Assembly (NCBI RefSeq): GCF_003790525.1
Contig: NZ_CP033635.1
Length of the DNA stretch: 64,000 bases
Strand: one strand, 5' to 3'
DNA from: Escherichia coli
Lineage (GTDB): Bacteria; Pseudomonadota; Gammaproteobacteria; Enterobacterales; Enterobacteriaceae
Positions 12,521-16,047 of this stretch are shown here, in pieces (position 1 is the stretch's first letter; each line of letters opens with the position of its first letter). Both the position numbers and the translations under genes were made by a program. The notes under the pieces are model-generated. The model had not been told where the DNA came from. It worked only from the letters and a program-made list of their open reading frames with translations, and made no database searches.

Positions 12521-13708
12521 ATGAACTTATCCCTACGACGCTCTACCAGCGCCCTTCTTGCCTCGTCGTTGTTATTAACCATCGGACGCGGCGCTACGCT
12601 GCCGTTTATGACCATTTACTTGAGTCGCCAGTACAGCCTGAGTGTCGATCTAATCGGTTATGCGATGACAATTGCGCTCACTATTGGCGTCGTTTTTAGC
12701 CTCGGTTTTGGTATCCTGGCGGATAAGTTCGACAAGAAACGCTATATGTTACTGGCAATTACCGCCTTCGCCAGCGGTTTTATTGCCATTCCTTTAGTGA
12801 ATAACGTGACGCTGGTGGTGCTCTTTTTTGCCCTTATTAACTGCGCCTATTCCGTTTTTGCTACCGTGTTGAAAGCCTGGTTTGCCGACAATCTTTCGTC
12901 CACCAGCAAAACGAAAATCTTCTCAATCAACTACACCATGCTCAACATTGGCTGGACCATCGGTCCGCCGCTCGGCACGTTGTTGGTGATGCAGAGCATC
13001 AATCTGCCCTTTTGGCTGGCAGCTATCTGTTCCGCGTTTCCCATGCTTTTCATTCAAATTTGGGTAAAGCGCAGCGAGAAAATCATCGCCACGGAAACAG
13101 GCAGAGCCTGGTCGCCGAAAGTTTTATTACAAGATAAAGCACTGTTGTGGTTTACCTGCTCTGGTTTTCTGGCTTCCTTTGTTAGCGGCGCATTTGCCTC
13201 GTGCATTTCACAATATGTGATGGTGATTGCTGATGGGGATTTTGCCGAAAAGGTGGTCGCGGTTGTTCTTCCGGTGAATGCTGCCATGGTAGTTACGTTG
13301 CAATATTCCGTGGGCCGCCGCCTTAACCCGGCTAACATCCGCGCGCTGATGACAGCAGGCACCCTCTGTTTCGTCATCGGGCTGGTCGGTTTTATTTTTT
13401 CCGGCAACAGCCTGCTAATGTGGGGTATGTCAGCTGCGGTATTTACTGTCGGTGAAATCATTTATGCGCCGGGCGAGTATATGTTGATTGACCATATTGC
13501 GCCGCCAGGAATGAAAGCCAGCTATTTTTCCGCCCAGTCTTTAGGCTGGCTTGGTGCTGCGATTAACCCATTAGTGAGTGGCATAGTACTTACCAGTCTG
13601 CCGCCTTTCTCGCTGTTTATCATCTTAGCGTTGGTGATCGTTGCTGCGTGGGTGCTGATGTTAAAAGGAATTCGTGCAAGACCGTGGGGGCAGCCCGCGC
13701 TTTGTTGA
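12521..13708 (+). CDS. ydeE: MFS transporter YdeE
   Basis: 395 aa 12-TM MFS protein at the expected position. Confidence 0.8.
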   Translation: MNLSLRRSTSALLASSLLLTIGRGATLPFMTIYLSRQYSLSVDLIGYAMTIALTIGVVFSLGFGILADKFDKKRYMLLAITAFASGFIAIPLVNNVTLVVLFFALINCAYSVFATVLKAWFADNLSSTSKTKIFSINYTMLNIGWTIGPPLGTLLVMQSINLPFWLAAICSAFPMLFIQIWVKRSEKIIATETGRAWSPKVLLQDKALLWFTCSGFLASFVSGAFASCISQYVMVIADGDFAEKVVAVVLPVNAAMVVTLQYSVGRRLNPANIRALMTAGTLCFVIGLVGFIFSGNSLLMWGMSAAVFTVGEIIYAPGEYMLIDHIAPPGMKASYFSAQSLGWLGAAINPLVSGIVLTSLPPFSLFIILALVIVAAWVLMLKGIRARPWGQPALC

Positions 13709-13834
13709 TTTAAGTCGAACACAATAAAAATTTAATTCAGCCTTCGTTTAGGTTACCTCTGCTAATATCTTTCTCATTGAGATGAAAATTAAGGTAAGCG
13801 AGGAAACACACCACACCATAAACGGAGGCAAATA

Positions 13835-13930
13835 ATGCTGGGTAATATGAATGTTTTTATGGCCGTACTGGGAATAATTTTATTTTCTGGTTTTCTGGCC
13901 GCGTATTTCAGCCACAAATGGGATGACTAA
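13835..13930 (+). CDS. mgtS: small membrane protein MgtS (YneM), 31 aa
   Basis: MLGNMNVFMAVLGIILFSGFLAAYFSHKWDD with RBS GGAGG; followed by a hairpin terminator. Confidence 0.8.
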   Translation: MLGNMNVFMAVLGIILFSGFLAAYFSHKWDD

Positions 13931-13985
13931 TGAACGGAGATAATCCCTCACCTAACCGGCCCCTTGTTACAACTGTGTACAAGGG

Positions 13986-14100
13986 GCCTGATTTTTATGA
14001 CGGCGAAAAAAAACCGCCAGTAAACCGGCGGTGAATGCTTGCATGGATAGATTTGTGTTTTGCTTTTACGCTAACAGGCATTTTCCTGCACTGATAACGG
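13986..14100 (-). ncRNA. mgrR: probable PhoP-regulated sRNA MgrR (boundaries approximate)
   Basis: minus-strand intrinsic terminator (CCGCCGGTTTACTGGCGG + U8, about 13986-14012) and upstream PhoP-box-like direct repeat GTTTAA-N5-GTTTAA (14137-14154); known locus between mgtS and dgcZ. Confidence 0.45.
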
Positions 14101-14148
14101 ATCGTTGACACAGTAGCATCAGTTTTCTCAATGAATGTTAAACGGAGC

Positions 14149-15039
14149 TTAAACTCGGTGAATCACGTTTTGTTCGTCAATAAACATACAGCGATTTCTT
14201 CCGGTTTGCTTACCCTCATACATTGCCCGGTCCGCTCTTCCAATGACCACATCCAGAGGCTCTTCAGGAAATGCGCGACTCACACCTGCTGTCACGGTAA
14301 TGTTGATATGCCCTTCAGAATGTGTGATGGCATGGTTATCGACTAACTGGCAAATTCTGATACCTGCACGACATGCTTCTTCATCATTATCCGCTTTGAC
14401 AATAATGATAAATTCTTCGCCCCCGTAGCGATAAACCGTTTCGTAATCACGCGTCCAACTGGCTAAGTAAGTTGCCAGGGTGCGTAATACTACATCGCCG
14501 ATTAAATGCCCGTAGGTATCATTAACCAATTTAAATCGGTCAATATCCAACAACATTAAATAAAGATTCAGAGGCTCAGCGTTGCGTAACTGATGATCGA
14601 AGGATTCATCAAGAACCCGACGACCCGGCAATCCCGTCAAAACATCCATATTGCTACGGATCGTCAGTAAATAAATTTTGTAATCGGTTAATGCCGCAGT
14701 AAAAGAAAGCAACCCTTCCTGAAAAGCGTCGAAATGCGCGTCCTGCCAGTGATTTTCAACAATAGCCAACATTAATTCCCGACCACAGTTATGCATATGT
14801 TGATGGGCAGAATCCATTAGCCGAACGTAAGGTAATTCATCGTTATCGAGTGGCCCCAGATGATCAATCCACCGACCAAACTGGCACAGTCCATAAGAAT
14901 GGTTATCCGTTATTTCTGGCTTACTGGCATCTATCGCGACCACGCTGTGAAACATACTTACCAGCCACTGGTAGTGGGCATCGATAGCCTTATTGAGATT
15001 TAACAAGATGGCATCAATTTCCGTTGTCTTCTTGATCAT
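14149..15039 (-). CDS. dgcZ: zinc-sensing diguanylate cyclase DgcZ (CZB + GGDEF)
   Basis: 296 aa; GGEEF motif present; recognised DgcZ/YdeH sequence. Confidence 0.9.
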   Translation of the reverse strand: MIKKTTEIDAILLNLNKAIDAHYQWLVSMFHSVVAIDASKPEITDNHSYGLCQFGRWIDHLGPLDNDELPYVRLMDSAHQHMHNCGRELMLAIVENHWQDAHFDAFQEGLLSFTAALTDYKIYLLTIRSNMDVLTGLPGRRVLDESFDHQLRNAEPLNLYLMLLDIDRFKLVNDTYGHLIGDVVLRTLATYLASWTRDYETVYRYGGEEFIIIVKADNDEEACRAGIRICQLVDNHAITHSEGHINITVTAGVSRAFPEEPLDVVIGRADRAMYEGKQTGRNRCMFIDEQNVIHRV

Positions 15040-15686: not shown

Positions 15687-15925
15687 ACTGACTCCTTAAT
15701 TGCGTTTGGTTTGACTTATTAAGTCTGGTTGCTATTTTTATAATTGCCAAATAAGAATACTGCCAATTGTTATAAGGCATTTAAAATCAGGCTACTAGAT
15801 GTCAAATATTCAGAGAATTTAACTCACTAAAGTTAAGAAGATTGAAGAGTCTTAAACATATTTCAGAACAATCAGATTTATAAATTTGAAAATTATTATA
15901 ACGGAAGAGTATACAAAAAAGTAAT

Positions 15926-16003
15926 TTTGCTGGCGACTGCGAAACGGCATTCGCATTAGCGGTGAAGTTTGCCCTCGCCCAGCTGCTGCAATTACTGCTA
16001 TAA
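15926..16003 (+). pseudogene. ydeJ: 3' remnant of ydeJ (CinA/PncC C-terminal-domain paralog); 5' part replaced by AT-rich sequence
   Basis: short in-frame tail FAGDCETAFALAVKFALAQLLQLLL* matching a CinA-like C-terminus; only about 360 bp between ydeI and dcp. Confidence 0.45.
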
Positions 16004-16047
16004 CGAGGCTGGTCTGGCGATAAATCCAGGCCAGCCATTGGTGGTGT

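Follow-up and report, generated by a model that had tools for sequence, protein, structure and literature searches.

Between the small gene mgtS and the end of dgcZ, a 64,000-nucleotide stretch of an Escherichia coli genome (hereafter the window) carries a minus-strand hairpin with a run of eight U, preceded by a GTTTA direct repeat that touches the dgcZ stop codon. The question raised by this locus is whether these elements make up a separate small RNA gene, namely that of the PhoP-controlled sRNA MgrR, or belong to the transcripts of neighbouring genes. A sequence-only reading of the window had pointed to MgrR, with boundaries that it described as inferred. The analysis reported here makes it almost certain that the region is the E. 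coli mgtS-mgtT/mgrR/dgcZ locus and that the minus-strand element is the MgrR gene.

The segment 13700-14250 is 100% identical to the corresponding region of E. coli SMS-3-5 and of many other strains, and 5416 of the 5426 complete E. coli genomes contain it. The order mgtS, mgrR, dgcZ is that of K-12, with MgrR convergent to mgtS and located downstream of dgcZ. The features of the region are listed in Table 1.

Table 1. Features of the mgtS-mgtT/mgrR/dgcZ region in window coordinates; nucleotide numbers (nt) refer to the MgrR transcript.
Feature	Position	Strand	Description	Basis
eamA	annotated upstream	-		SMS-3-5 and K-12 annotations placed on window coordinates
ydeE	12521-13708	+		SMS-3-5 and K-12 annotations placed on window coordinates
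Probable mgtS promoter	13734..13768	+	box AATTCA-GCCTT-CGTTTA, 13734-13750; extended -10 TGcTAATAT, 13760-13768	deduced from sequence
mgtS (yneM) CDS	13835-13930	+	31 aa	ORF list; RefSeq mgtS in SMS-3-5 and K-12
mgtT CDS	13930-14034	+	34 aa	ORF list; mgtT in SMS-3-5, b4775 in K-12
G+C-rich hairpin with U-rich tail	13958..13998	+	inside mgtT; probable leaky intrinsic terminator	
mgrR	14006-14103	-	98-nt sRNA	homology to K-12 b4698; Rfam RF01407 match
MgrR U8 run	14013..14006	-	nt 91-98 (nt 91 closes the stem)	
MgrR intrinsic terminator	14006..14032	-	8-bp stem, nt 72-91, ending in U8	terminator scan and fold
MgrR seed region	14036..14049	-	U55-A68, UAUCCAUGCAAGCA	invariant in all loci
MgrR open central region	14068..14033	-	nt 36-71	predicted fold
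MgrR A-rich (ARN)n stretch	14052..14068	-	nt 36-52; Hfq distal-face site typical of class II sRNAs	unpaired in fold
MgrR 5' stem-loop	14099..14069	-	nt 5-35	predicted fold
Extended -10 of mgrR	14118..14110	-	TGcTACTGT; -15 to -7 from start 14103	read from sequence
PhoP box of mgrR	14154..14138	-	GTTTAA-GCTCC-GTTTAA; -51 to -35 from start 14103	direct repeat
dgcZ (ydeH) CDS	14149-15039	-		ORF list; annotated in SMS-3-5 and K-12
ydeI	annotated downstream	-		SMS-3-5 and K-12 annotations
dcp	annotated downstream	-		SMS-3-5 and K-12 annotations

Compared with the K-12 MG1655 ncRNA mgrR (b4698, 98 nt, lying between mgtT and dgcZ), the window copy is identical at 97 of 98 nucleotides. The sole difference, T4C at sRNA nt 4 (window position 14100), falls in the 5' end at a nucleotide that is unpaired both in the Rfam consensus and in the predicted fold and is polymorphic among relatives. 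The two copies share their neighbours, promoter motifs, terminator, A-rich Hfq site, seed and predicted pairing with eptB, and no functionally notable difference separates them. The boundaries are now set by homology, the start at 14103 being transferred from the K-12 annotation; the published description of MgrR is likewise of a 98-nt RNA with a 3' U8 (PMC6239178).

A scan of the whole window against Rfam returned a single match, to RF01407 (STnc560, an Hfq-binding RNA), at 13924-14137 on the minus strand, with a score of 280.2 bits against a gathering score of 55 (E = 4.9e-64) and covering model positions 1-214 of 214. The span of this match exceeds the transcript, as it takes in 34 nt of promoter DNA upstream, including the -10 element, and the mgtS-side hairpin downstream. 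We take STnc560 to be MgrR because the K-12 mgrR coordinates fall within the RF01407 match; a literature search returned no paper linking the names STnc560 and MgrR. Alignment with MgrR and comparison with its covariance model were among the checks proposed along with the sequence-only reading, and both agree with its assignment, as do the synteny and the published direct activation by PhoP (PMC3536696). The RefSeq record of SMS-3-5 has no mgrR feature, which is an annotation gap; only the K-12 record carries the feature.

The 98-nt MgrR sequence is predicted to fold at -25.9 kcal/mol (z = -2.9) into two hairpins separated by an open centre, which is unpaired in both the minimum free energy and the centroid structures save for a weak helix of 2-3 bp. 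The strong minus-strand terminator described from sequence is indeed present: its stem (14032..14013) has 8 pairs, six of them G-C, and a UUUA loop, and it was called by the terminator scanner. Its long U-tail corresponds to the Hfq proximal-face site. In nuclease probing, E. coli MgrR showed a stem-loop at either end, an A-rich (ARN)5-like tract open to the nucleases, the pairing region U55-A68 and a 3' U8 (PMC6239178), and the predicted architecture agrees with that probed structure. In its single-stranded ARN-rich tract, Rho-independent terminator and U-tail, MgrR resembles the class II Hfq sRNAs ChiX, CyaR and McaS, a class that is defined by experimental dependence on Hfq faces and is read here from sequence alone; MgrR is listed among the class II Hfq-dependent sRNAs in PMC6239178.

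When the single-stranded region of MgrR was used as query against positions -60..+40 of eptB from K-12, rather than of the eptB of this strain, nt 54-69 were predicted to form a duplex with positions -8..+9, across the AUG, at -17.6 kcal/mol. The energy of this duplex stands out only moderately, as 51 in 1000 shuffled targets were equally good; its location matches the published U55-A68 site (PMC6239178). Pairing of full-length MgrR with 210 nt of eptB was also tried and rejected, as it gave a meaningless 80-nt duplex no better than those of shuffles.

Upstream of mgrR, the GTTTAA-N5-GTTTAA repeat that had been placed about 110 nt from the terminator and over the dgcZ stop codon is found as described, with a gap of 105 nt to the terminator stem on the minus strand. 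The stop codon TAA (14151..14149) lies within the distal hexamer, where GTT-TAA combines the final Val codon with the stop, and stands at -48 relative to the mgrR start. The core GTTTA-N6-GTTTA occurs exactly, and once, on the two strands of the 64-kb window, where 0.18 occurrences are expected; at least one match was present in 17 of 100 shuffles. Compared with the consensus (T/G)GTTTA-N5-(T/G)GTTTA, the leading bases of the two half-sites are A and C, i.e. 2 mismatches over 12 positions, and a search of the window with the consensus relaxed to 2 mismatches showed no enrichment (19 found, 19.6 expected). Given these matches in shuffled sequence and the lack of enrichment of the relaxed consensus, the motif alone is only mildly improbable. 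As judged from sequence, the case for the putative PhoP box rests on its fixed position upstream of the extended -10 and on the conservation of the proximal half-site.

The mgrR promoter lacks a -35 hexamer, and a generic scan for sigma-70 -35/-10 elements calls no promoter there, as expected of an activator-dependent promoter. Direct activation by PhoP has been reported for both mgrR and yneM (= mgtS), on the evidence of promoter-lacZ fusions and of a MgrR northern blot that respond to PhoP levels (PMC3536696), and the part of PMC6239178 that cites Moon & Gottesman 2009 describes MgrR as dependent on PhoP/PhoQ and induced by low Mg2+. The 11-bp period of the GTTTA direct repeat and the missing -35 hexamer are common to mgrR and to the PhoP-box promoters of mgtA, mgrB and mgtS, the last of these only 370 nt away, and an extended -10 of the form TGcTAnTnT is shared by mgrR and mgtS. 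On the mgtS side, the box elements (A/G)TTCA-N6-GTTTA and the TGCTAnTAT motif are kept in 16 related loci. The mgrR promoter differs from the other PhoP-box promoters in that its hexamers are led by A or C instead of T or G, and in that the distal hexamer doubles as the last codon and stop of dgcZ. In addition, 22 nt separate the end of its box from the -10 hexamer, compared with 12 nt at mgtS, so that the mgrR box is more distant by roughly one turn of the helix.

On the opposite strand, the mgtS ORF comprises 31 codons with the product MLGNMNVFMAVLGIILFSGFLAAYFSHKWDD, and is 90-100% identical in related loci. The sequence-only reading had mgtS end in a plus-strand hairpin terminator. A hairpin with a U-rich tail does exist, starting 28 nt past the mgtS stop: positions 13958-13988 form 13 pairs with one bulged U, followed by UGAUUUUUAU, with a folding energy of -24.6 kcal/mol and z = -3.8 relative to shuffles. 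It was not called by the simple terminator scanner, probably because of the bulge. Among strains and species its stem is conserved and its loop variable. It is not a simple end of the transcription unit, since the ORF of mgtT reads through it; mgtT, which is annotated and has been detected experimentally, runs through the hairpin, and therefore termination must be incomplete, so that the element is at most a leaky terminator.

The gene mgtT was absent from the earlier account of the window. The ATG of mgtT overlaps the mgtS TAA by one base (TAATG), its product is identical at 33 of 34 residues to the K-12-type sequence, and the final 29 nt of the ORF run antisense to the 3' end of mgrR, with the MgrR terminator included. 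Ribosome profiling revealed MgtT, and epitope tagging confirmed it, in a study whose Fig. 6d shows mgtS/mgtT together with mgrR (bioRxiv 10.1101/511675), and it was also detected by PIRT-seq (PMC12350097). It is PhoQP-dependent, forms an operon with mgtS and has so far shown no phenotype upon deletion or overexpression (PMC11429745).

To place the locus among its relatives, an exact 22-mer from the centre of MgrR was compared with a collection of species-representative genomes, and 19 loci were recovered. They belong to Escherichia (the coli clade, E. albertii and E. whittamii), to many Citrobacter, to a Raoultella-labelled MAG and to one contig of a 'Caldithrix' MAG; the latter is K-12-identical E. 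coli sequence and clearly a contamination. No Salmonella, Klebsiella or Enterobacter locus was recovered by this exact 22-mer scan. The invariance of the 22-mer itself is a matter of ascertainment, and independent evidence comes only from the flanking seed nucleotides and the stems. The invariant centre spans 30 nt and extends beyond the 22-mer used in the search, while the flanks diverge. The outer 5' stem is kept in all 14 distinct homologues, with G-U/A-U changes; the terminator stem is kept in the 14 as well, one of its pairs being substituted on both sides and two on a single side. The support from covariation in these alignments is thin, because the homologues are close and the set is shallow.

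Where the promoter is retained, namely in 18 loci of Escherichia/Citrobacter type, the proximal half-site GTTTA and the TG-n-TA of the -10 do not vary, and the spacing is constant to within 3 nt. The distal half-site is degenerate in Citrobacter, reading TAGTTA or TAGTTG. Of the 19 loci, 18 have mgtS and/or dgcZ homologues next to the sRNA; at that of C. amalonaticus (L011), neither was detected in the fetched sequence. Measured from the mgrR start, the dgcZ stop lies at different positions in different lineages: it is about -48, within the distal half-site, in E. coli and E. whittamii, -59 in E. albertii, and usually -69 to -81 in Citrobacter, with -295 in two loci (L013 and L019). In one locus of the E. 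coli clade (L010) the TAA has become TTA, and dgcZ continues through the box to a TGA at -27. The distal repeat there reads GTTTT, a natural variant from which some tolerance of changes at this repeat would be predicted. As far as these loci indicate, the box and the dgcZ stop overlap only in some lineages of Escherichia, and this arrangement does not represent a conserved design. In most Citrobacter loci the mgtT homologue stops after 14 codons, inside the hairpin loop, and elsewhere it has an unrelated C-terminus; by this comparison full-length MgtT and its overlap with mgrR look confined to Escherichia.

The same elements could be read without a separate sRNA gene, the minus-strand hairpin and its U8 being the terminator and 3' UTR of dgcZ and the GTTTA repeat having arisen by chance. 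The scanner found no other minus-strand terminator between the dgcZ stop (14149) and 14032, and dgcZ transcripts therefore very probably end at the mgrR terminator; the 17% of shuffles with at least one match likewise leave room for a fortuitous repeat. This reading is nevertheless highly improbable, given that a separate 98-nt ncRNA is annotated in K-12 and that PhoP has an effect on mgrR-lacZ fusions and on MgrR in northern blots (PMC3536696). The conservation pattern also speaks against it. The proximal half-site and the extended -10 are kept, at fixed spacing, in Citrobacter too, even though the end of dgcZ lies 30-250 nt further upstream there; the central 30 nt do not vary in spite of the divergence on both sides; and the C. 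amalonaticus locus has the sRNA with no dgcZ homologue detected in the fetched locus. The two roles of the hairpin are not mutually exclusive, and one terminator can serve both dgcZ and mgrR.

A further possibility is that the functional RNA corresponds to the STnc560 span of about 214 nt (13924-14137), produced by reading through the U8 to the second hairpin, as might be suggested by the match to RF01407 over all 214 model positions and both hairpins. This is the least probable of the readings. The first 34 positions of the RF01407 model precede the annotated start and cover the -10 element, and therefore the model includes flanking DNA and not the transcript only. The U-tract that goes with the second hairpin belongs to the plus strand, behind mgtS, and there is none on the minus strand. 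The stem-plus-U8 terminator that would have to be passed is strong, the length given both in the K-12 annotation and in PMC6239178 is 98 nt with the U8 at the 3' end, and in Citrobacter about 40 nt of unrelated sequence are inserted between the two hairpins. The 98-nt MgrR thus remains the preferred reading, and nothing in the data of this analysis contradicts it.

The following scheme would account for the function of the locus. At low Mg2+, phosphorylated PhoP would bind the GTTTAA-N5-GTTTAA box, as published for this promoter and presumed for this strain, and would recruit RNA polymerase to the mgrR promoter, which has an extended -10 and no -35 hexamer. Transcription would start at 14103 and stop at the stem-plus-U8 terminator, giving a 98-nt trans-acting, Hfq-dependent sRNA of class II. 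The invariant seed U55-A68 would pair across the start codon of eptB, and also of ygdQ and other mRNAs, and repress translation, which would alter the phosphoethanolamine modification of LPS and the sensitivity to antimicrobial peptides. The convergent mgtS-mgtT unit would likewise be activated by PhoP, from its own PhoP-like box and extended -10. In this scheme the identity of the gene, its homology-based boundaries, the structure, the promoter motifs with their conservation and the seed complementarity to eptB come from the present analysis, and PhoP dependence, Hfq binding and target repression come from the literature on K-12.

Several sRNAs are transcribed from promoters located in or at the 3' end of the upstream coding gene, such as MicL inside cutC and DapZ at dapB. 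In E. coli, MgrR is similar to them in that its activator site overlaps the end of the dgcZ coding sequence and in that it shares the only terminator available to dgcZ. It differs from them in that its transcript starts 45 nt downstream of the dgcZ stop, and in Citrobacter the promoter is fully intergenic; for these reasons MgrR is normally treated as an intergenic sRNA.

Research on MgrR dates back to 2009, and its targets include eptB, ygdQ and pitA. An MgrR locus with a PhoP box beside mgtS is already known and presents nothing new, and the discovery value is small, since MgrR, its control by PhoP, its mode of Hfq binding and its targets have all been described. The practical gain lies in the sRNA boundaries for this genome, in the recognition of the missing mgrR annotation, in the addition of mgtT and in the finding that the overlap with the dgcZ stop is lineage-limited.

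There is, in addition, a rather slim chance that in Escherichia dgcZ, mgrR and mgtS-mgtT are physically interlocked with regulatory effect. As no terminator belongs to dgcZ itself, dgcZ transcripts, which can be induced for example by Cpx activation, would cross the PhoP box and stop only at the terminator of mgrR, and the whole MgrR sequence would form the 3' UTR of the dgcZ mRNA. From the other side, any mgtS-mgtT mRNA produced by read-through is complementary to the 3'-terminal 29 nt of MgrR or more, terminator stem included. A literature search found no paper on dgcZ sharing the mgrR terminator or on mgtS-mgtT read-through antisense to MgrR. If such an arrangement operates, the dgcZ mRNA could yield PhoP-independent MgrR by processing, or act as a tethered seed or sponge, and the two convergent transcripts, both induced by PhoP, could tune each other through collision or duplex formation.

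An ncRNA feature for mgrR, the PhoP-controlled sRNA gene, is absent from the RefSeq annotation of E. coli SMS-3-5 (NC_010498.1), a genome that is 100% identical to the window at the mgrR locus (14006-14103). The feature is present in the K-12 record, and the Rfam model matches the window at 280 bits. The missing mgrR in the SMS-3-5 record is an annotation gap.

Features of the mgtS-mgrR region and of the ydeJ site in the window
Feature	Coordinates	Strand	Description
PhoP-like repeat ATTCA-N6-GTTTA with TGcTAATAT	13734-13768	+	mgtS promoter region
mgtT	13930-14034	+	annotated small gene
81-nt fragment at ydeJ site	~15924-16004		RefSeq: incomplete '2-oxo-tetronate isomerase' pseudogene

Upstream of mgtS, an extended -10 element lies 12 nt downstream of a PhoP-like repeat, and both elements are kept in 16 of the related loci. 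The extended -10 sequences of the two genes are nearly alike, being TGcTAATAT at mgtS and TGcTACTGT at mgrR. The small gene mgtT, which shares one base with the mgtS stop codon, traverses the hairpin resembling a terminator of mgtS, and the final 29 nt of mgrR are antisense to mgtT. Among the related loci compared, the ORF homologous to mgtT comprises only 14 codons in most of those from Citrobacter, and its C-terminus is unrelated elsewhere.

Comparison of the mgrR promoter region in E. coli strain SCPM-O-B-8794 (NZ_JAATUR010000028.1) revealed TTA in place of the dgcZ stop codon TAA, and the distal PhoP half-site therefore reads GTTTT. The dgcZ gene of this strain is longer, as its reading frame crosses the PhoP box and ends at a TGA situated about 27 nt upstream of where mgrR starts.

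The 519-nt ydeJ gene of K-12 is missing from the window strain, where only the 81-nt fragment is present at the corresponding site between ydeI and dcp (~15687-16047). The eamA gene is adjoined by a gene for a GntR-family regulator in SMS-3-5 and in the window (below ~11400), whereas in K-12 its neighbour is marB; therefore, an insertion or replacement distinguishes the strains at this junction.

One related locus belongs to a metagenome contig, SMXE01000224.1, labelled 'MAG: Caldithrix sp.', in which a ydeE-mgtS-mgtT-mgrR sequence occupies the contig end, within the final ~1.6 kb of the retrieved locus. Its mgtS-mgrR segment matches E. coli K-12 at every position where the window and K-12 differ. 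Contamination with E. coli DNA, or a chimeric contig in the metagenome-assembled genome, is almost certainly the explanation. In Citrobacter amalonaticus S646 (NZ_PQMB01000002.1), mgrR is accompanied by its PhoP box and terminator, and no homologues of mgtS, mgtT or dgcZ were detected in the retrieved locus. In C. amalonaticus the sRNA is thus separated from its usual neighbours.
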